Below, in pieces: positions 4,010 to 37,853 of a stretch of 64,000 nt of DNA (within the stretch, counting starts at the first letter, position 1; each line of letters begins with the position of its first letter). The position numbers and the translations under genes were made by a program. The notes under the pieces were generated by a model that ran no database searches, was not told the origin of the DNA, and saw only the letters and a list, made by a program, of their open reading frames with translations. Source of the stretch: an uncultured Candidatus Moduliflexus sp. (lineage in GTDB: Bacteria > Moduliflexota > Moduliflexia > Moduliflexales > Moduliflexaceae); NCBI GenBank assembly GCA_964602655.1, contig CAZRSF010000027.1, positions 3,830-67,829 of the forward strand, given 5' to 3'.

Positions 4010-5905
4010 TCAGCGTTCCATGAATTGCCGAAACCAGAGTTCGAACATGAGCAGCGTCCAGAAGTTCATGCCGAAATTGCGTTCGCCGGATTGATGCTGC
4101 CGCCACATGGTTTTGACCGTTTCCGGGTTAAAAAAGCCGCGCTGCAAAGCGCGTTCCGACAGAACCGTCTCTTGCGCCAATACTTTCAAATCGTTGCGAA
4201 ACCAGGCGTTCAGCGGCGCGTCGAAGCCGCGTTTTTTGCGATAGAGAATTTCCGGCGGCAGATACGGCGTCAACGCCTTTTTCAGAATATATTTTTTCTC
4301 TTTGCCGTGCAATTTGAAGCGCGACGGAATCGAAGCGACAAACTCGACAAAGACCGGATCGAGCATCGGCGGGCGCACTTCCAGCGAATGCGCCATGCTC
4401 ATTCTGTCCACTTTGACCAGCATGTCGTCCGGCAGCAGCACTTTCAGGTCAACATATTGCACTTTCGAGAGCGGATCGTTCGTATCAGCGCGATTGTACG
4501 CGCTTTCCACGACGCTGTACGGATCGTAGCCGCCAATGGCTCGCAGCGTGTCTTGCGTCAACAATTGCCGCTCTACGTCGGGTGTCATGAACGTATTCGT
4601 CCGGTAAAAGGCGCGGGCGTGCGGCAGGGTCAGATTCGTCAAAAAGAATTTGGCGCGTAGATACCAGGGCAGCCAATCCCATTGCGGATAGATGCCCGCC
4701 AATGGCGCAATGCCCCATTGTTTCAGCGGTTGCGGAATGCGTCGCCGCAGCGATTCTTCCATCATGTCAATCGGATATTTGGAGTAGCCTGCGAAATTTT
4801 CGTCGCCTGCGTCGCCGGAAAGCGCGACGGTCACTTTTTCCCGCGACAATTTCGAGACGTAGTAGGTCGGAATCGCCGATGAATCGGCGAACGGTTCATC
4901 GAAATGCCAGACAACTTTATCAATAATGCTGACGGCATCGGCCTTGACCACGCGCTCGAAATGGTCGGTTTTATAGTAATTGCTGACGATGCGGGCGTAT
5001 TCGAGTTCGTCGAATTCCTTTTCCTCGAAGCCGATGGAGGTTGTCACGACCGGCGTCGTCATGGATTGCGCCATCATCGCGACGATGCCGCTGGAATCCA
5101 CACCGCCGCTCAGGAACGCGCCGAGCGGCACGTCGCTCATCAGGTGCATTTTGACGGTTTCTTGCAGTCGCTCGATCAGCATCTCGCTGTAATATGATTC
5201 GGGCTTCTGCTCGTTAACATGGGCGAACGAGACATCCCAGTATTCTTGAATGCGGAGGCCATTGCGGTTGCAGACCATATAATGCGCGGCGGGGAGCTTG
5301 TAGATGTTTTTATAAATCGTTTTCGGCGCGGGAATGTACGAATACATCAAATAGTCGTAAAACGCCTGATAATTGAGTTCTTTCGGCACGGTCGGGTCTT
5401 CCAGCAGGCATTTTAATTCCGAGCCGAACACGAGGCGTTTGCCGTCGGAATAATAATAGAGCGGCTTCTGGCCGATATGGTCGCGGGCGATGAAAAGCTG
5501 TTGTTTCGGCGCGTCCCAGATCGCAAACGCAAACATGCCGCGCAGATATTTGACGCATTGCTCACCGTATTCGCGATACAAATAAATGATGACTTCCGTA
5601 TCGGTGTGCGAATGAAAGCGATGCCCGCGCTGAATCAGCGGCTCGCGGTGTTCGAGATAGTTGTAAATTTCGCCATTGAAAACGATGGCGAGTTGGCGAT
5701 CCTCCGAAAACATTGGCTGACGACCTGCTTCGGACAGATCGATAATGCTCAAGCGCCGCTGTCCGAGGCCGATTGCGCCATCAATGTAAATGCCGTCGGC
5801 GTCCGGCCCGCGATGGCGAATCACATCTGTCATGCGCTGAAGCAGTTCCGGCGTGACTGGCTGCGTCTGATCTAAATAGTTAAAAACGCCCGCAATTCCG
5901 CACAC
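4010..5905 (-). CDS. asnB: Asparagine synthase (glutamine-hydrolysing)
   Basis: N-terminal MCGIAG Ntn-amidotransferase start. SGGVDSS PP-loop. 631 aa. Sits inside the polysaccharide cluster. Confidence 0.9.
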   Translation of the reverse strand: MCGIAGVFNYLDQTQPVTPELLQRMTDVIRHRGPDADGIYIDGAIGLGQRRLSIIDLSEAGRQPMFSEDRQLAIVFNGEIYNYLEHREPLIQRGHRFHSHTDTEVIIYLYREYGEQCVKYLRGMFAFAIWDAPKQQLFIARDHIGQKPLYYYSDGKRLVFGSELKCLLEDPTVPKELNYQAFYDYLMYSYIPAPKTIYKNIYKLPAAHYMVCNRNGLRIQEYWDVSFAHVNEQKPESYYSEMLIERLQETVKMHLMSDVPLGAFLSGGVDSSGIVAMMAQSMTTPVVTTSIGFEEKEFDELEYARIVSNYYKTDHFERVVKADAVSIIDKVVWHFDEPFADSSAIPTYYVSKLSREKVTVALSGDAGDENFAGYSKYPIDMMEESLRRRIPQPLKQWGIAPLAGIYPQWDWLPWYLRAKFFLTNLTLPHARAFYRTNTFMTPDVERQLLTQDTLRAIGGYDPYSVVESAYNRADTNDPLSKVQYVDLKVLLPDDMLVKVDRMSMAHSLEVRPPMLDPVFVEFVASIPSRFKLHGKEKKYILKKALTPYLPPEILYRKKRGFDAPLNAWFRNDLKVLAQETVLSERALQRGFFNPETVKTMWRQHQSGERNFGMNFWTLLMFELWFRQFMER

Positions 5906-5997
5906 AAAGAAATTCTCCTTCGTACCGGCGGACAGCCTTGTCCGCAGGGTAATTTATTCATGCATACTGGCGGACAAGGCTGTCCGCCGATACTCGC

Positions 5998-7161: not shown

Positions 7162-7165
7162 TCCA

Positions 7166-7196
7166 GACTTCCGAGGTCTTCAAAAACTCGGAAGTC
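7166..7196. repeat. Palindromic element GACTTCCGAGGTCTT-loop-CTCGGAAGTC
   Basis: Perfect 10-bp inverted repeat between the Wzy stop and the GT4 start. The same stem sequence recurs at 30735-30765. Confidence 0.7.
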
Positions 7197-7202
7197 TTCC
7201 CA

Positions 7203-20783: not shown

Positions 20784-20794
20784 ACCAAATTTGG

Positions 20795-20872
20795 TAGGGG
20801 CGTTCAATTGAACGCCCCTACGCGGCAACATACTACGAGAACCCTGCCAGGGTTTCAAACCCTGGCAGGGTT
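20795..20872. repeat. Two tandem hairpins: GTAGGGGCGTTCAATTGAACGCCCCTAC, then family A AACCCTGCCAGGGTTTCAAACCCTGGCAGGGTT
   Basis: Perfect palindromes directly downstream of the rhaA stop. Confidence 0.75.
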
Positions 20873-22759: not shown

Positions 22760-22760
22760 A

Positions 22761-22820
22761 GGAGTGCCAAAGCTTGCTTTGGCGATTCGATTGGCAGGCC
22801 AAAGCAAGCTTTGGCACTCC
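22761..22820. repeat. Family B palindrome GGAGTGCCAAAGCTTGCTTTGGC-loop-GCCAAAGCAAGCTTTGGCACTCC
   Basis: 23-bp perfect inverted repeat starting 2 nt after the EEP gene stop and upstream of glgX. Confidence 0.75.
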
Positions 22821-22848
22821 TGAATGCGTATTCAAGGCGACGATTGTC

Positions 22849-27265: not shown

Positions 27266-27981
27266 TCAGCATGGTGTGTCAAAATCATCAGCAATCGTGA
27301 CCATACCCTTTGCGCTCCGAACTGACGGCAAGGGCGCATACACTGTTGCTGCATTGGCTTGGTTTTGAGGAAACGGAGAAAATCCCACACATCCATCAGC
27401 GTATCGAATGAAACCTGCTGAAGGTCTTGCATAATCTGCTGCTGTAATTAGTTGCTCTGGAAGCTTGCCATTTTTTAATGTCTTGTTTTATCAATTTTCG
27501 AGTTTTTTCTCTTCCACCAAAATATTTCTTAAGAGTATATCCCTAAATAGTGATTGACAACAATCGCTGAATACACAAACGATCCATGCCATGAAACGAA
27601 CACAGATAACAGGGACGTTCATCGAGACCGATGAGGGGAGTGGAGATGTCGGTGTGCAATTGGTGACGTTCTGTTTCAGTCAGTGTGACACGATATTTTT
27701 TCATTGACATAGTGAGTTCTTCCTGATGGTTATGATGTTCGCCATCAGGATAACGCATGGGGATTTTTGTCTATTAAAAACTTACCGAGTAGGCTGCGGC
27801 AACAAAACTTTTATATCCCGAACTCTTGAAATAATGGAACACTGATTGGGCTGATGAGACTGATTTTCACTGATTTTGTAAGTTTTTTCAGAAGTATGCC
27901 CCGCGCAAAATGTTTTTCCATCAAAAAAATCAGTGCAGTTCAGTCTTATCAGCCCAACCAGTGTTCTATTAACTCATTGCA

Positions 27982-29247
27982 ATGAAACATATTCAAGGCT
28001 TGAAATGCGTCAAATGCGGGCGCGAATACGCCCTCGGCGACGTGATGTATGTCTGCCGTGATTGCGGACTTGAAGGCACGTTGGATGTCGTCTATGACAT
28101 GAATCTTGTGGCCGTGCGGCTGTTGCGTCATCTTCAGACCTCAACGGCTGTCCGCGAACCGCTGTCGATCCGGCGCTACGTCGATCTCCTGCCGATTCAG
28201 GATGAACGGTTGCTCCCGCCGTTGCGCATTGGCGGGACGCCGTTGTACGACTGCCATGATTTTGCCCGAAAAGGTTGTCATGAATTACGCGCCGCCTGCC
28301 CGCAGCGGCTCTTTATCAAAGATGATGGCCGTAATCCGACCGCTTCGCTGAAAGACCGCGCCAGCGCGTTAGCGATTGTGAAGGCCAGAGAACTCGGCAA
28401 AACGATCATCACCTGCGCGTCAACAGGTAACGCCGCCTCGTCATTAGCGGGATTAGCCGCGTCGGTCGGCATTTCGACCGTGATCTTCGTCCCGGAAACC
28501 GCGCCGAAAGCGAAAGTCGCGCAATTGCTGATGTATGGGGCGCGCGTGTTGATGGTGAAAGGCTCCTACGATCAGGCGTATGACCTCTGCCTGCAAGCAT
28601 CGGCAGAATGGGGCTGGTACAATCGTAACAGCGGGTATAATCCGTATCTCGGCGAAGGCAAGAAGACGGCGGCGTTGGAAATCTGCGAGCAGCTTGGCTG
28701 GAAAGCGCCGGACAAAGTCTTCGTGGCGGTCGGCGATGGCTGTATTTTCGGCGGCATGTGGAAAGGCTTCTGCGATCTATACGATTTGGGCTTGATTGAC
28801 AAACGCCCGCAGATGATCGGCATACAGGCCGAGGGCGCGAGTCCTTTGGCTGCCGCCTTTAAGAGCGGAATGCCGGTGCAGCCGCAGCGTCAGCTTCATA
28901 CGATTGCCGACAGTATTTCCGTCGGACAGCCGCGCGACGCCCTGAAAGCGCTTCGCGCCGCCCGCGATTCACAGGGCGCGTTGATGACGGTCACAGACGA
29001 CGAGATTTTGGACGCCATGCGTCTGTTGGCGCGAAATACCGGTGTCTTTGCCGAACCCGCAGGCGCAACCGCCTTTGCCGGATTGCAGCGCATGGTCAGC
29101 GACGGCGCAATTGGCGAGGACGAAACCATCGTTGTCATGGTGACGGGCAACGGCCTGAAAGATATTGACACCGCAATCCGCGCCGCTGGCAGCCCAACCA
29201 TCATCGAGCCAGATTTCCGCGACGTGAAACGCGCGTTACAGGAGTAA
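27982..29247 (+). CDS. thrC: Threonine synthase with an N-terminal zinc ribbon
   Basis: PLP-fold motifs (KDDGRNPTASLKDRAS lysine region). N-terminal CxxC...CxxC. 421 aa. Confidence 0.85.
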   Translation: MKHIQGLKCVKCGREYALGDVMYVCRDCGLEGTLDVVYDMNLVAVRLLRHLQTSTAVREPLSIRRYVDLLPIQDERLLPPLRIGGTPLYDCHDFARKGCHELRAACPQRLFIKDDGRNPTASLKDRASALAIVKARELGKTIITCASTGNAASSLAGLAASVGISTVIFVPETAPKAKVAQLLMYGARVLMVKGSYDQAYDLCLQASAEWGWYNRNSGYNPYLGEGKKTAALEICEQLGWKAPDKVFVAVGDGCIFGGMWKGFCDLYDLGLIDKRPQMIGIQAEGASPLAAAFKSGMPVQPQRQLHTIADSISVGQPRDALKALRAARDSQGALMTVTDDEILDAMRLLARNTGVFAEPAGATAFAGLQRMVSDGAIGEDETIVVMVTGNGLKDIDTAIRAAGSPTIIEPDFRDVKRALQE

Positions 29248-29252
29248 ACTCA

Positions 29253-29283
29253 AACCTCACAGGTTTTCGAAACCTGTGAGGTT
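29253..29283. repeat. Family A variant AACCTCACAGGTTTTCGAAACCTGTGAGGTT
   Basis: Perfect palindrome right after the thrC stop. Confidence 0.75.
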
Positions 29284-29303
29284 TCGCGCCGTCATTTCAA
29301 TCG

Positions 29304-30077
29304 TTACGCTCTTACGATAAACAGCAGCGGATGATAGGTCAGCGGCACGCGTTCGAATGCGCCGAAGCGTTCGCGGTAGGCGCGCTCGAAATGGGCGAGG
29401 TCGGATTTCGTCCATTGTTTTTGCGAAGAGACGCCATTCACGCCGGTCAGCCGCAAGTGGCGCAGCACATCCATCGGCGACGCAAAATGCAGCGGCGCGA
29501 ACTCTTCCGACGACATGATCACCTCAAAATGCGTCCGCACTGACGCGAGCACATCCCCATAGGAACGATACGGCAGCGAATTGCCCGTCAATTCGCGGAT
29601 TTCGCGGCAATTTTCCGGGCCGAACGTCGAAAACGCCAACAATCCGCCCGGTTTCAGACGCTCTTTCAGGCGCGCCACAAATCCGTCGAAATCGTGCAGC
29701 CATTGAAATGTCGCATTCGATAAGACCAAATCGAGATCGCCCGGCAAATCGGCGATGGCTTCGATGTCGCCGCGCAAAAACGTAAACGTTCCATGCGGAT
29801 ATTGCCGGAAAATATCGTCAATGACGATCTGGCATTCCCCCACCAAATCATTCGCGTACAACGTGGCGACCGGAAAACTTTTCAGCAGCCGTTCCGTCGA
29901 AAGACCGCTGCCGCATCCGATTTCCAGCGCGCGCGAGAAGCCGGCGGGATGAATGCGCCGCAGCGATTCCAGCAATTCTTCCGCCATGCGGGCTTGCACT
30001 TCCGCGTGTTGATTGTATGAGAACATGCTTTTGAAAAAACTGTGCTGCACCCGTGATTTGTCAGCATAGTGCGTCAT
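29304..30077 (-). CDS. bioC: Malonyl-ACP O-methyltransferase
   Basis: SAM-MTase motif LEIGCGSGLST. About 257 aa. Sits in a block with bioG, bioF and bioB. Confidence 0.8.
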   Translation of the reverse strand: MTHYADKSRVQHSFFKSMFSYNQHAEVQARMAEELLESLRRIHPAGFSRALEIGCGSGLSTERLLKSFPVATLYANDLVGECQIVIDDIFRQYPHGTFTFLRGDIEAIADLPGDLDLVLSNATFQWLHDFDGFVARLKERLKPGGLLAFSTFGPENCREIRELTGNSLPYRSYGDVLASVRTHFEVIMSSEEFAPLHFASPMDVLRHLRLTGVNGVSSQKQWTKSDLAHFERAYRERFGAFERVPLTYHPLLFIVRA

Positions 30078-30124
30078 GATACGTCAGGCATCGCGCCGTG
30101 ATAGGACTGATGTTCACGAAGTCA

Positions 30125-30913
30125 TCATCCATCAGCGCGCGATGCCGCAAGGTCCGTCCATCTATTCCACAGAAAAAAGGGATAATGCGGCGCGTCAATC
30201 ATGTTGCAATGCGCGCGCCCATCCCAATACCGCTGCTGATTCGCCGCAGGCATGATTCGGTCGCGTGTGCTGATCAATGCGACGAACTCCCCTCCTGGGA
30301 GGGGTTGGGGGTGGGTTGTGATGGATTTCTCAACACCCGACCCACCCCTACCCCTCCCAGGAGGGGAATCTTGCGGCTTCGCCGCGAACAATTCGGAGCT
30401 GGCGACCGCCGCCGCCTGAATCGCCGCTAACTCTTCCGCTTGCTCCGATAACTCGCGTTGCGGGCGTTGGTGCGCGAAACGTTCGAAAATTGCGCGCGAA
30501 CCGCACATCCGTTCGAAAAATTTTTCGCGCCCTTTTGCGTCAAACCGGTCGAGCGTGGCCTGAAACACGTCCGGCGCGATGCCGAATTCGGCATGAATCG
30601 GCTGCGGTGTGCCATTAATCGCGATAACGCGATTCGCATGAAAATTCAATCTGCCGCTGATGCGGGCATAGGCCCAAACGCCCATTGACCAGCAGATCGC
30701 CACGATCTGTTCGTAGTGTCGGTTCACGCGGTCGCAGACTTCCGAGGTCTTGGAGACCTCGGAAGTCTTATTGAGGTCGCGGTAATCGCACACGGTCAAG
30801 ACATCCCAGTCGTCGCATTCGAGATGCGCGACGACATGCTCGTCCATGCCCCATCCGTTGAAAAACAATACGAGACGCGGGTTATGCTGCTGACGAATCC
30901 AATGCCATTTCAT
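30125..30913 (-). CDS. bioG: Pimeloyl-ACP methyl ester esterase BioG (DUF452) carrying two in-frame palindromic insertions
   Basis: LVLFFNGWGMD N-terminus. CWSMGVW nucleophile elbow. C-terminal MIDAPHYPF. Start taken at MKWHW (30913). Insertion 1 (KTSEVSKTSEV) spans 30735-30765. Insertion 2 (78 nt) spans 30289-30366. Confidence 0.75.
   Translation of the reverse strand: MKWHWIRQQHNPRLVLFFNGWGMDEHVVAHLECDDWDVLTVCDYRDLNKTSEVSKTSEVCDRVNRHYEQIVAICWSMGVWAYARISGRLNFHANRVIAINGTPQPIHAEFGIAPDVFQATLDRFDAKGREKFFERMCGSRAIFERFAHQRPQRELSEQAEELAAIQAAAVASSELFAAKPQDSPPGRGRGGSGVEKSITTHPQPLPGGEFVALISTRDRIMPAANQQRYWDGRAHCNMIDAPHYPFFLWNRWTDLAASRADG
30289..30366. repeat. Family C GC-rich 78-nt composite palindrome (CCCCTCCTGGGAGGGG...CCCCTCCCAGGAGGGG) inserted in-frame in bioG
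   Basis: The inverted-repeat arms are visible directly. The length is a multiple of three and the reading frame continues through it (PPGRGRGGSGVEKSITTHPQPLPGGE). Confidence 0.7.
30735..30765. repeat. Palindromic element GACTTCCGAGGTCTTGGAGACCTCGGAAGTC inside bioG
   Basis: Same stem as the 7166-7196 element. Translated in-frame as KTSEVSKTSEV. Confidence 0.7.
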
Positions 30914-32093
30914 GCAACGCGGCGGCAATCGCATCGGGCAGCGGCGCAAGCTGCTCCCAACGCATCGCCGCATTTAAAGACAATCGCAGCCGCGCAGTAT
31001 TCGGCGGAACGGTCGGCGGACGAATCGCAAAAATCAGCCAGCCTTGTTCCCTCAGTCGTTCCGCGACACGCACCGTCGCGTCGTTTTCGCCGATCATGAT
31101 CGGCATGATTTGCGAACTGCCGTCTGTTTCAAGCTTCCTGGCGATCAACGCTTGCCGAAGGCGCTGCGATAATTCCAGCACAGCCCGCCGTTCGTTCTGC
31201 ATGGCGGCGACTTTTTTGAGGATAAACAGATTCCAATTCAGCGTCATCGGCGGCAGCGCGGTGGTAAAAATCAGCGGGCGCATCGTGTTGACGAGAAATT
31301 CCTTCAAAATGCGGTTGGTGATGGCATACGCGCCGACAGAAGCGAACGCTTTGCCGAATGTGCCGACAATGACGTCAATGTCCCGCATGACGTCTTGCGC
31401 TTCGCAGACGCCGCAGCCGCGTTCGCCGAAGACGCCGACCGCATGGGCTTCGTCCACGATCAGCAGCGCATGATAACGATTTTTCAATTCGACGATGCGC
31501 CGCAAGTCCGCAATGTCGCCGTCCATGCTGAACACCGATTCGGTGATGATGAACACGCGCTGAAATTCGGCGCGATGCTGTTCCAGCAGTTGTTCGAGGT
31601 GGGCGTAATCGCAATGACGATAGCGGATATATTTGGCCTGCGAAAGCTGCAAGCCGTCCATCATGCTGGCGTGATTCAGCTTATCCGACAGAATCAGATC
31701 GCGCCGGTCGGCTAAGGCGGAAATAATGCCGATATTGGCGTGATAGCCGCTGTTGAAGATGCAGGCCGCTTCTGCCTGATACATCTCCGCCAAATACGTT
31801 TCCAGGCGATCATACGCCTCGGCGTTGCCGGTCAGCAGGCGCGACGACGACCCCGCCAGACCGAAACGGTCAATCAGATTGCCAGCGCCGTCCTGATGCA
31901 GAAACTCCTCCAAAAGCCGCTGATTCGCGCCGAGGCCGAGATAGTCGTTGGACGAAAGGTTGAGATAGTGTTTCCCGTTGAAATCAGCATGAGTTTCGTC
32001 GCGCCGGGCAATGCTTCCTAATTGCCGCAACTGCTGTTTCGCGCGTAAATCGTCAAGCTGTTGCCTGAATGAGTCGTAAATATCGGCGTTCAT
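30882..32093 (-). CDS. bioF: 8-amino-7-oxononanoate synthase
   Basis: Class I/II aminotransferase fold with a PLP-lysine region (FSMDGDIADL...). 403 aa. Adjacent to bioB. Confidence 0.9.
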   Translation of the reverse strand: MNADIYDSFRQQLDDLRAKQQLRQLGSIARRDETHADFNGKHYLNLSSNDYLGLGANQRLLEEFLHQDGAGNLIDRFGLAGSSSRLLTGNAEAYDRLETYLAEMYQAEAACIFNSGYHANIGIISALADRRDLILSDKLNHASMMDGLQLSQAKYIRYRHCDYAHLEQLLEQHRAEFQRVFIITESVFSMDGDIADLRRIVELKNRYHALLIVDEAHAVGVFGERGCGVCEAQDVMRDIDVIVGTFGKAFASVGAYAITNRILKEFLVNTMRPLIFTTALPPMTLNWNLFILKKVAAMQNERRAVLELSQRLRQALIARKLETDGSSQIMPIMIGENDATVRVAERLREQGWLIFAIRPPTVPPNTARLRLSLNAAMRWEQLAPLPDAIAAALHEMALDSSAA

Positions 32094-32110
32094 TTTTCGA
32101 TGTTTTTCCC

Positions 32111-32136
32111 GTTTTCCCCTCCCAGGAGGAGAAAAC
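32111..32136. repeat. Family C palindrome GTTTTCCCCTCCCAGGAGGAGAAAAC between bioF and bioB
   Basis: Near-perfect inverted repeat in the 48-nt bioB-bioF spacer. Confidence 0.65.
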
Positions 32137-32141
32137 GTTGT

Positions 32142-33125
32142 TCAAGCGAAGGCGGCGAGCCGCGCCAACAAGGCGTCGTCTTCGGCCACGTCGCGCCCGC
32201 GCGTGGTCAGGTATCCGCCGGTTAACAAGCCGTTCGCGCCAGACAGCATGAGCAAGCCCTGAAAATCTTTCATCACGGTTTCGCGTCCGGCGGCAAATTT
32301 GATGATTTTGGTCGGATTCACGAGCCGGAAAATGGCGAACGCTTTAGCGATCTCGGCGACCGACAGCGGCGGCTGCTTTTCGAGCGGCGTTCCGGCAATC
32401 GGCACGAGCACGTTCAACGGAATCACGTCCACATCGAGTTCCTGCGCGGCAAACGCCAATGCCACGCGATCCGCCGCCGTTTCACCGACACCGAAAATGC
32501 CGCCGCAGCAGACGCCGATGCCGTAGGCTTTCAGCAGGCGGATCGTCTCGATTTTTTCCTGAATATCGTGCGTATCGGCAATCAAATCGGCGAATTTGGC
32601 GGGGTTGACCTGGAGATTGATGTTATAATGACCGATCTTGCGTTCGGCGAGTTTTTTGACCGTCTCCTGGCTCAAAATGCCGAGAGACAAACAAACGTTC
32701 ATATTAGGAAGTTCCTGATGAATCGAATCAATGGCGGTCAGAATCGCGCCGAATTCCTCATCACATTCCGTATAGCCGAAGCCGCTGGTGACAATGCCGA
32801 AATAGTTGACCCCGGATTCCGCCGTTTTGCGGGCATGTTGCAGGATCGTGTCGGGCGACATCAGGCCATACACTTCGACGTGCGCGTGATGATGCGTGGA
32901 TTGGGCGCAGAAGCGGCAATTTTCCTGACAGACTCCTGATTTGGCGTTCAAAATCGAGCAGGCGTGCATTCCGCGCGTAAATTTGTTTTTGACTTTATTG
33001 GCGAGCGAGACGAGATCGAGCGTCTCTTCGCCTGATAATTCGGCCAATCTACCGGCTAATTCCCGGCTGACCGGTTGGCCGCTTTCTAAGATATGATACG
33101 CTTGTTGAATGGCTGGATGTAACAT
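32142..33125 (-). CDS. bioB: Biotin synthase
   Basis: [10 protein letters not shown] radical SAM cluster and the typical BioB length. Start trimmed to MLHPAIQQ because the upstream extension is translated palindrome. Confidence 0.9.
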
Positions 33126-33160
33126 GTTCTGTATTTCCTCGTCGCCAAAGGCGAACGATT

Positions 33161-33228
33161 CCCCTCCAGGGAGGGGCGAGGAGTGCAAAAGCGCAGCTTT
33201 TGCCGTCAAAGCTTCGCTTTGAGACTCC
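33161..33228. repeat. Family C palindrome CCCCTCCAGGGAGGGG followed by a family B compound hairpin (GGAGTGCAAAAGCGCAGCTTTTGC...GCTTTGAGACTCC)
   Basis: Lies in the bioB 5' leader. Translated spuriously as an N-terminal extension of the bioB ORF. Confidence 0.65.
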
Positions 33229-33319
33229 TTCGTGATGTTCAATGGAAATGAATAGCGCTGTGCGTCATCGAGTTACGTAAAAAACAACATGTGATCTTTT
33301 TGAGAGTTAGCTGAACTTG

Positions 33320-33349
33320 TTGACCAAATTTTTATGAGTGGTTGATAAT
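33320..33349 (+). promoter_or_regulatory. Candidate sigma-70 promoter in the bioB-gpsA divergent intergenic region
   Basis: TTGACC, an 18-nt spacer, then TGnnGATAAT. It sits ~490 nt upstream of the gpsA start, so the transcript identity is unclear. Confidence 0.3.
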
Positions 33350-33715
33350 AGTCAAGCAAGAATTTGATTAATTTACAGAAGTTAGTAACTTTGCAGATTT
33401 AGCGGGGATTTTGCCGAAAAGAAAATAGGCGCGTTTTTGAAAAGGATTTTAAACCCTGACAGGGGTTATTAAAAATCAATCCTCGTACCTATAAATTTTT
33501 AGTTCTCCCGATAGGACACGGGGAAAGGGTTGTTAAGTTCTCAATATCGCCCGGCTCCCATGTTTGCCGCTCCTACCTGTATTCCTCTATCCTTTCGGGG
33601 CAACATCGGGAAAAGTCAAAGAAAAATCCGACCGGCGGCAAGAAATTCTCTTGACTCGATAACCGCGCAAACATACGGCATATACAGCATTATTTATTTC
33701 CATCGAACATCCGAA

Positions 33716-33764
33716 GGAGTCTCAACGCGGAGCGTTGACGGCAAAAGCTCCGCGTTCGCACTCC
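33716..33764. repeat. Family B hairpin GGAGTCTCAACGCGGAGC-loop-GCTCCGCGTTCGCACTCC
   Basis: Inverted repeat in the gpsA upstream region. Confidence 0.6.
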
Positions 33765-34860: not shown

Positions 34861-35040
34861 GTGCGCCCCGCCCCGGCGTGGCTGTTATGTTTTCGTGAAC
34901 ACCTGTCATTGCGAGCGCTTTTCAGCGAAGCAATCTCGCCGGAATCACGGGATGGCTTCGTCGTTGTCACTCCTCGCAATGACAGGCATATTTACGAGAA
35001 CGCAGCAGCCCTGCGCCGGGGCGTCTCTACGAGAAGGAGA

Positions 35041-35724: not shown

Positions 35725-35741
35725 CTATTCCTTGAAAAAGA

Positions 35742-35879
35742 GGAGTGTCAGAGCGTCGCTCCGATAGGTCAAAGCTGCGCGTTGACACTCCTGAGAATTT
35801 CTGAAACGGTGTACTTGTAACTTCTACCGCCGGCGTCCTCGTCGGCGTTGTGAACACGTGCCGACGAGGACGTCGGCGG
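35742..35879. repeat. Family B hairpin (GGAGTGTCA...TGACACTCC) plus a 20-bp GC-rich hairpin (CCGCCGGCGTCCTCGTCGGC / GCCGACGAGGACGTCGGCGG)
   Basis: Two strong stem-loops in the spacer between the DUF4197 and AKR genes. Confidence 0.65.
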
Positions 35880-37820: not shown

Positions 37821-37853
37821 AACCCTGCCAGGGTTTTAAACCCTGGCAGGGTT
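37821..37853. repeat. Family A AACCCTGCCAGGGTTTTAAACCCTGGCAGGGTT
   Basis: Perfect palindrome between the purA stop and the ankyrin gene start. Confidence 0.75.

Follow-up and report, generated by a model that had tools for sequence, protein, structure and literature searches.

How can a small enzyme gene hold two palindromes inside its reading frame and still encode an enzyme? This question is raised by bioG, which lies on the minus strand at 30125..30913 of a 64,000-nucleotide stretch of contig CAZRSF010000027.1 (GenBank assembly GCA_964602655.1) from an uncultured Candidatus Moduliflexus sp.; the whole stretch is called the window here. An initial annotation, made from the letters of the window, had noticed the two palindromes and had proposed that either BioG tolerates loop insertions or the gene is decaying. 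A search for arms and examination of the open reading frame (ORF) confirmed that both palindromes are present and in frame. We consider it probable, at roughly 0.8, that they are two non-autonomous palindromic repeats lying in frame in a working bioG, translated as extra peptide, and moved and tolerated in the way outlined below. A 33-bp hairpin of the repetitive extragenic palindromic (REP) type would add 11 codons before the nucleophile-elbow strand, extending a surface helix, and a doublet of about 80 bp, composed of two inverted 27-28-nt modules, would add a 27-residue disordered loop before the catalytic-Asp strand.

The first element is a perfect 33-nt hairpin palindrome (30736..30768) with arms of 15 nt each (30736-30750 and 30754-30768) and a 3-nt loop; its REP-type family is designated SP33. 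Read in the coding sense, it extends from the second base of the K49 codon to the first base of the C60 codon and contributes exactly 11 codons, residues 49-59 (KTSEVSKTSEV), following DYRDLN. The initial annotation was correct as to this peptide and its place in the protein, and its DNA coordinates (31 nt at 30735-30765) had to be adjusted. The 15-mer arm occurs four times in the window versus 0.05 expected by chance, and the predicted RNA fold of the hairpin has a free energy of -27 kcal/mol (z = -7.9). The arms are near-palindromes in their own right, which makes the element an 18-nt tandem repeat as well. The KTSEV-variant arms contain no stop codon in any frame. Freedom from stop codons was also considered as a property of the whole family and was rejected, as the AAACCTCACAGGTTT variant has a TGA in one frame.

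The second element is an 80-nt GC-rich double palindrome (30288..30367) that encodes residues 183-209 (codons S183-E209; SPPGRGRGGSGVEKSITTHPQPLPGGE). The 78 nt reported for it in the initial annotation (30289-30366) represent only its core. Its outer arms are 23 nt long and 96% complementary, and they enclose an inner pair, GGGGTGGGT/ACCCACCCC. On the minus strand, a left 28-nt module (TCCCCTCCTGGGAGGGGTAGGGGTGGGT; 30340..30367), whose 27-nt core is widespread in other genomes, is separated by a 23-nt spacer from a right 29-nt module (ACCCACCCCCAACCCCTCCCAGGAGGGGA; 30288..30316), which is an inverted copy of the left one. This is the architecture of a REPIN, a doublet of inverted REP modules. 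The predicted RNA fold reaches -69.5 kcal/mol (z = -9.3), and the 16-mer arm was found seven times in the window versus 0.02 expected by chance. GTAG is present in the module at the start of the inner stem (GTAGGGGTGGGT), which is a non-canonical position relative to its own hairpin, and it was not counted as a REP tag. The 27-nt module also holds a run of the G-quadruplex type, GGGAGGGGTAGGGGTGGG.

The selection for elements of a multiple of three nucleotides that the initial annotation had invoked is not needed for the 33-nt family, the unit of which is already 11 codons; it is plausible for the GC-rich doublets, which vary in length.

Whether the host gene is intact was assessed from its sequence, its relatives and its predicted structure. 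The identification as BioG (DUF452) was borne out by Pfam PF04301, which matched with 111.4 bits against a cutoff of 27 (E=5.9e-32), and by a profile match to PDB entry 5GNG (E=2e-51); a scan of the protein with NCBIfam profiles matched no BioG model. Across 16 BioGs (alignment A1), 36 columns are invariant. These include Ser76 (codon 30686..30688, minus strand), the nucleophile in a W-S-M-G elbow; Asp218 (30260..30262, minus strand), the likely acid of the catalytic triad, which follows directly on the second insert; and His243 (30185..30187, minus strand), the likely triad base, which lies in APHYPF. The likely catalytic His that the initial annotation had pointed to in MIDAPHYPF is thus the invariant H243. 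The same residues are invariant in an 11-sequence alignment (A5, in which D218 and H243 are named). Ser76 aligns with S65 of Haemophilus influenzae BioG, a residue that was found by mutation (S65A) to be required (PMC3494674).

Purifying selection was evident in the core, defined as the 192 codons outside the two variable sites. The ratio of nonsynonymous to synonymous substitution rates (dN/dS) was 0.08-0.26 in all 21 pairwise comparisons of the window and its relatives, and 0.15-0.19 for the window versus each relative. The AlphaFold2 model of the window BioG had a mean predicted local distance difference test score (pLDDT) of 86, and its best match in the PDB was BioG 5GNG_A (E=1.4e-19; template modeling score 0.89, normalized by target). 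The idea that bioG is decaying, a pseudogene in the making in which palindromes accumulate under relaxed selection, can draw on the two insertions within one gene of 789 bp, in a window where no other gene has an internal palindrome, and on the identity of BioG among these genomes, 57-73%, versus 82-86% for the neighboring BioF. The latter comparison marks BioG (30125-30913) as the fast-evolving member of its operon. Against decay stand the reading frame, which is intact in seven of seven genomes, the low core dN/dS, the invariant triad and columns, the confidently predicted fold and the conserved operon order. In view of the dN/dS values, the invariant residues and the BioG fold, we reject decay, which appears very improbable. 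These sequence and model data support the view that the window bioG is a working gene that tolerates insertions.

The two inserts occupy different structural settings in the model. Insert 2 (183-209) has a pLDDT of 42-60, is devoid of secondary structure and connects the last lid helix (155-177) to the strand (209-215) ahead of D218. Insert 1 (49-59) is modeled with a pLDDT of about 86 within a helix (50-66), just ahead of the strand leading to the nucleophile elbow. Tolerance of loop insertions, as initially proposed, is therefore an apt description for insert 2, which is predicted to be a disordered loop; insert 1 appears to be tolerated as well, as an extension of a helix rather than as a loop. 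Unrelated BioGs carry other insertions at site 2 (P0068, P0113 and P0012), and the same comparison revealed no length variation at site 1. An insertion would survive only if it left the frame intact and landed in a permissive segment of the surface.

We compared the window with six bioG orthologues (L001, L002, L003, L004, L006 and L007; L002 is from Moduliflexus), the DNA of which was taken from independent assemblies (ENA, JGI, NCBI and Logan). All six have in-frame palindromes at both sites, and at least three element families are represented at each site. At site 1, the 33-nt KTSEV hairpin is found in the window, L004, L007 and L006; L001 has a 54-nt palindrome of a different, AGGAGTG type; and L002 and L003 have a GC-rich doublet, placed two codons downstream of the hairpin position, on the far side of the conserved Cys-Asp pair. 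At site 2, the window, L001, L004 and L007 share the GC-rich doublet, L002 has a solo CCCCTCTTAGGAGGGG, and L003 has a different GC-rich palindrome, of which L006 carries a partial copy. The spacer between bioB and bioF behaves similarly: L002 has a GC-rich doublet there, L001 and L004 have the 33-nt hairpin, and the window has a solo module. Apart from site 1, L001 and L007 hardly differ (core dS 0.13, dN 0.011), yet at that site they carry different elements; a difference of this kind despite so small a core dS indicates a recent exchange.

The initial annotation had reasoned that insertion would be the wrong interpretation if orthologues carried the same sequences as conserved protein segments. 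Orthologues of 57-73% identity do have elements at both sites, but these belong to varying families of DNA palindromes, the loop peptides they encode vary from one orthologue to the next, and the BioGs outside this clade (P0008 onward in alignment A1) have neither insert. The same comparison bears on the further concern that the palindromes are sequencing or assembly artefacts such as hairpin chimeras. Some library and assembly artefacts do create palindromes, and the only exact database copy of the window protein, P0001 (one NCBI contig of 69 kb), may share the assembly of the window. An artefact is nevertheless hardly credible, given that the same elements occupy the same codons in the independent assemblies, that P0003 is found on about 10 contigs, that the frame is kept each time, and that the families occur in hundreds of unrelated contigs.

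The palindromes have not decayed in the way expected of neutral inserts. The window and L007 have an overall nucleotide identity of 78% and differ at about 50% of synonymous sites, yet they agree at every one of the 30 arm bases of the 33-nt hairpin. By our own calculation, the chance of such identity is about 6e-4 at the gene-wide rate and about 1e-9 at the synonymous rate. In L006 the arms differ at five positions, four of which constitute two compensatory pairs. Similarly, the right module of the GC-rich doublet is identical at 29 of 29 positions in the window and L001, and the spacer has diverged. By parsimony on the dS values, the window would be the outgroup to two clusters, L001/L004/L007 and L002/L003/L006, and on this tree both elements were probably already present in the common ancestor. 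That the arms are unchanged at such divergence suggests that some force preserves them: new insertions, gene conversion templated by other copies, and selection acting on the hairpin are all possible.

It is conceivable, in this connection, that co-option has given the inserts a function for which they are now retained. As protein segments, they could lengthen a helix close to the nucleophile elbow or act as a flexible tether of the lid; at the RNA or DNA level, they could form stable hairpins in the polycistronic bio mRNA that affect its stability, ribosome pausing or the stoichiometry of bioG and bioC, or they could be binding sites for hairpin-binding proteins. The perfect arms in the face of synonymous divergence, the compensatory changes in L006, the retention by every clade member of a palindrome of some kind in the operon spacers and at each of the two sites, and the stable predicted folds of both elements would all fit such a role. 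Yet orthologues have different families at one and the same site, their loop peptides show no conservation, disorder is predicted for insert 2, and the same elements are found in many unrelated genes and spacers; moreover, re-insertion, gene conversion or selection on the element itself would explain the conserved arms equally well. We thus regard co-option as unlikely. Under the interpretation of tolerated repeats, the two bioG sites and the bio operon spacers would instead be long-lived docking sites in the Moduliflexus-related clade, where docked palindromes are kept perfect or are swapped for other families as the enzyme core remains under purifying selection.

Both elements belong to dispersed families. 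The initial annotation had attributed them to the families that populate the intergenic regions of the window, which proved true of the 33-nt type. A census of the window revealed 12 hairpins of this architecture (15-16-nt arms and 1-3-nt loop; nine of them 33 nt long), of which 10 are clearly intergenic and the bioG copy is the only intragenic one. An intergenic sibling of the same subfamily, with two mismatches in one arm, is found at 7165..7197, and another palindrome of this architecture, at 29252..29284, lies directly downstream of both bioC and a convergent gene. The arms of the family begin with AGAC, AACC or AAAC, and neither a GTAG nor a CGTC tag was found. Outside the window, a search of metagenome contigs for the exact 33-mer, with any loop, located 57 places, among which the flanks are unrelated and 26 loop triplets occur; about 80% of these copies are outside long ORFs. 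Copies in frame were found in a class I tRNA synthetase, read as valyl-tRNA synthetase (PETSEVSETSEVY), an Eco57I-type methylase, HsdS (the type I specificity subunit), an M20 peptidase and a planctomycete-type PSCyt protein. In these five typed proteins the 33-mer is read as TSEV..TSEV, and in L136 as DFRGL.DLGSL. Because the 33-mer is in frame in several unrelated proteins, in-frame insertion must be recurrent, and the protein types suggest that it crosses taxa. The loci with an in-frame exact copy are L155, L144, L140, L177, L161 and L136; in the last of these, the 33-mer lies within a 1114-codon ORF that looks methylase-like by eye, from reading of the sequence rather than from a profile scan.

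For the GC-rich type, the attribution to the intergenic families of the window applies to a lesser extent: elsewhere in the window, the family is represented by two solo half-modules only, and it is abundant in other genomes. One half-module (32116..32131) lies in the bioB-bioF spacer, where L002 has a full doublet (4723-4807), and the other (33161..33176) lies 36 nt upstream of the likely bioB start, ATG 33125. The 27-nt core (TCCCCTCCTGGGAGGGGTNGGGGTGGG) was found in more than 118 stretches of Genome Taxonomy Database (GTDB) genomes from several phyla, including cyanobacteria (Nodosilinea, Oscillatoria and Phormidium), Bacteroidota (Rufibacter, Niastella, Pontibacter and Bacteroidales), a metagenome-assembled genome labeled Akkermansia, and Moduliflexus UASB14. 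The module is identical across these genomes (L008-L125; for example L034 2625-2710, L010 1206-1310 and L081 3541-3567) and is mainly solo, at times forming an inverted doublet or a tandem array. The majority of 142 GC-rich modules examined are intergenic, and a few lie within long ORFs.

A link between the 33-nt family and a transposase was found in other organisms. At locus L165, a 210-amino acid (aa) protein (5320-5949) matches NCBIfam NF047646, "REP-associated tyrosine transposase" (RAYT), over the full model (E=9e-16), and 2030 homologues of it were retrieved, many of which bear the name RayT in their sources. Palindromes of the 33-nt architecture lie on both sides of this gene (5267-5299 and 5960-5990), and a KTSEV palindrome is in frame inside it. 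L184 (gene 1501-2121) has identical AGACCTCACAGGTCT hairpins, all of one subfamily, upstream (1454-1486), inside and downstream (2125-2157) of the gene; L183 (gene 1501-2133) has two palindromes upstream (1318-1350 and 1450-1482) and one inside; L185 (gene 1501-2115) has the internal palindrome only. In an alignment of 12 RAYT-like proteins, the palindrome-encoded segment does not change its location, with the HUH motif on one side and the region of the catalytic Tyr on the other. The peptides encoded by the internal palindromes include QTSEVSETSEV, KTSQVSETCEV and KTCEVLASCEV. Since RAYT-like genes flanked by palindromes of the 33-nt type have the arrangement of a REPtron, we infer from these sequences that the 33-nt family is REP-type mobile DNA moved by RAYT-like enzymes. 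The hairpins, of the AGACTTCCGAGGTCT type, would then be moved by HUH/Y1 tyrosine transposases that act on single-stranded hairpins.

Several observations weigh against the interpretation of mobile repeats in a working gene. The L165 protein scored 58 bits, under the curated NCBIfam cutoff of 80. A tblastn search with the RAYT-like protein detected no homologue in the 64-kb window or the orthologue loci, so mobilization in the host genome is deduced from other organisms. No transposase was found to be associated with the GC-rich module in the loci examined by tblastn and ORF clustering, and clustering of the 911 ORFs that neighbor GC-rich modules yielded no recurrent protein. It is also possible that a hairpin of -69.5 kcal/mol in the mRNA lowers bioG expression. 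Finally, the clade showed neither a duplicated target site nor an allele with an empty site, so neither the act of insertion nor the precise length inserted was seen directly.

The lack of both a duplication and an empty site is what would be expected if the palindromes had been born in place, by local duplication or by template switching that perfects quasi-palindromes. Such an origin would also accord with the site-1 segment of L004 and L007, which is no longer than the native segment of insert-free BioGs, and with the near-palindromic arms that make the 33-nt element a tandem repeat. It fails to explain why unrelated places, by the dozens to hundreds and including unrelated genes, have identical 33-mers and 27-mers, and we give it scarcely any weight.

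A more far-reaching proposal is that the bioG sites and spacers are active docking sites at which REP-type hairpins are exchanged by a RAYT-like mechanism. The 33-nt family, with its length of 11 codons and the stop-free KTSEV arms, would qualify as a "translation-compatible" REP that crosses phyla; the transposase gene with its own in-frame hairpin would possibly hold a master copy or an autoregulatory site; and selection or gene conversion would spare the intragenic copies from decay and leave them perfect. We offer this proposal tentatively, as a speculation that we consider doubtful in its entirety.

Palindromes within genes have been described previously. Intragenic REPs with GTAG or CGTC tags were reported in Rickettsia conorii, an organism abbreviated O. 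terrae, and Thioalkalivibrio (Di Nocera et al. 2013, PMC3733652), where dimers encode 20-30 residues and REP ends can supply stop codons (PMC3733652). Similar to these, the elements described here are dispersed short palindromes, mainly extragenic, of which some singles and dimers are in frame and add about 10-30 residues, and the palindromes supply a neighboring stop codon, in this case that of bioG in L001, L007 and L004. They differ in that the 33-nt family has neither a GTAG nor a CGTC tag, in that the Moduliflexus-like host (candidate phylum KSB3) was not covered by the surveys of intragenic REPs, and in that a single small enzyme holds two families, with elements that turn over at the same two sites from one orthologue to another. 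Literature searches for the arm sequences returned nothing relevant, and the Moduliflexus genome paper mentions, of such repeats, only CRISPRs.

The Rickettsia palindromic elements (RPEs), as summarized in later papers, are palindromic repeats in frame in functional genes (Ogata et al. 2000, per PMC10969869 and PMC3733652). What bioG shares with them is a palindromic repeat, in frame and at a place where the fold permits it, within a gene whose function-defining residues are retained. RPEs are described there as roughly 100-150 bp long and as belonging to Rickettsia, in contrast to the elements of 33 and 80 nt found here in a free-living lineage with a large genome, and the arms of the bioG elements stay perfect rather than decaying. 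The relation to RPEs is one of analogy and not of membership, as the two are set apart by description and host and not by a comparison with RPE sequences.

In the classical case, REPIN populations are reported to be specific to a lineage and to be inherited vertically together with one RAYT (Bertels & Rainey 2011, PMC3116915). The GC-rich element resembles them in consisting of two inverted REP-like modules that form one long hairpin, and the 33-nt family in flanking RAYT-like Y1 transposase genes in a REPtron-like layout, in other organisms. Like REPs in general, both families are short, dispersed and chiefly extragenic. In contrast to REPIN-RAYT systems, the 27-nt module and the 33-mer are identical in contigs of different phyla and habitats, the RAYT-like genes themselves hold a palindrome in frame, and no such gene was seen beside the GC-rich module. 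By analogy with these systems, the bioG elements are intragenic insertions of the REP/REPIN type, comparable to RPEs in Rickettsia, and the phenomenon as such is already known. What appears to be new is the host lineage, the co-occurrence, within a single small enzyme, of two families with turnover documented at the same sites, arms that have stayed perfect, and the identity of modules across phyla together with RAYT-like genes that contain their own hairpin. As for the enzyme, it shares with H. influenzae BioG HI_1552 (PDB 5GNG; Shapiro et al. 2012, PMC3494674) the Pfam family, the fold, the Ser/Asp/His residues and the adjacency to bioC, and it differs from that protein and from typical BioGs by 11 and 27 extra residues at two sites that are normally short.

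The bioG locus is, then, an unusually clean example of a known phenomenon. It adds a candidate phylum of wastewater filaments to Rickettsia and the few REP-rich species in which in-frame palindromic repeats were known, and it provides a well-resolved natural experiment on the tolerance of an alpha/beta-hydrolase to insertion, with two mapped sites, seven orthologues and at least three families per site. The RAYT-like genes that contain a hairpin of their own, and the finding of identical elements in different phyla, offer leads to the spread of REP families. There are also practical consequences. The insert peptides (TSEV..TSEV and PPGRG..PLPGGE) will seed spurious similarity between unrelated proteins, and gene callers start wrongly or over-extend at these elements, as happened with bioG in the NCBI record and, in the present material, with bioF, bioB, a glgX-like ORF and an ankyrin ORF.

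The gene lies in a bio operon on the minus strand in the order bioB-bioF-bioG-bioC, as determined from the ORF list and Pfam; this order is kept in all six orthologue loci. The ORF of bioB spans 32142-33242, with a likely true start at ATG 33125, and the protein has 327-329 aa in relatives. It is followed by bioF (30882-32093), bioG and bioC (29304-30077). From ATG 30913, bioG encodes 262 aa and overlaps the end of bioF by 32 nt. A start with the same overlap was called in L002, L003 and L006, and in L001, L004 and L007 a 42-nt upstream extension of the called gene leads to the same ATG and the same N-terminus. P0001 has 240 aa and begins with MDEHV, so that the conserved N-terminal strand (window 30845-30913) is lost from it. 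The closest named relative of the window BioG is that of Candidatus Moduliflexus flocculans, with 57% identity.

Palindromes also affect the ends and spacers of the operon genes. The 33-nt hairpin encodes the last five bioG codons (TLPGF) and the TAA stop in L001 (6732-6764) and L007 (926-958), and a palindrome of the AGGAGTG type provides the TAG stop of bioG in L004 (5693-5750). An apparent insertion in bioF of L001, a 25-aa extension, was dismissed as a spacer palindrome that the gene caller had read through. Three further candidates for intragenic elements in the window were rejected as well: the solo module in the long bioB ORF is upstream of the start used by relatives, and the palindromes at 22760-22821 (AGGAGTG type) and 37821-37853 are upstream of the likely starts of the glgX-like ORF and the ankyrin ORF, respectively.

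Other classifications of the bioG elements were considered. An Rfam scan of the whole window at the gathering threshold gave no match, so neither element is a curated RNA family. Intrinsic terminators, consisting of a GC-rich hairpin and a U tract, were rejected, as a consensus scan of 28900-33600 called neither of the in-gene palindromes nor the copy that follows bioC. MITEs (miniature transposable elements with inverted repeats) were likewise rejected, because no direct duplication was seen beside either bioG element in the window or at the 57 metagenome copies.

The window contains additional repeats. The third palindrome family, with AGGAGTG...CACTCCT ends, is located at 22760-22821, 35741-35792 and 33716-33764. 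Perfect 28-nt palindromes with a GTAG tag (GTAGGGGCGTTCAATTGAACGCCCCTAC and GTAGAGACGCACGGCCGTGCGTCTCTAC) are present in the window (20794-20821), L001 (2111-2138) and L004 (940-967); these are of the classical GTAG-REP type and coexist with the other families. A large, MITE-like inverted repeat at 27827-27976, with 51-nt arms that are 84% complementary and a 48-nt spacer, lies directly upstream of a 421-aa ORF (27982-29247). An 85-nt palindrome at 34902-34986 has the arms CCTGTCATTGCGAG...CTCGCAATGACAGG, and its CATTGCGAGC motif presumably resembles another widely dispersed bacterial repeat.

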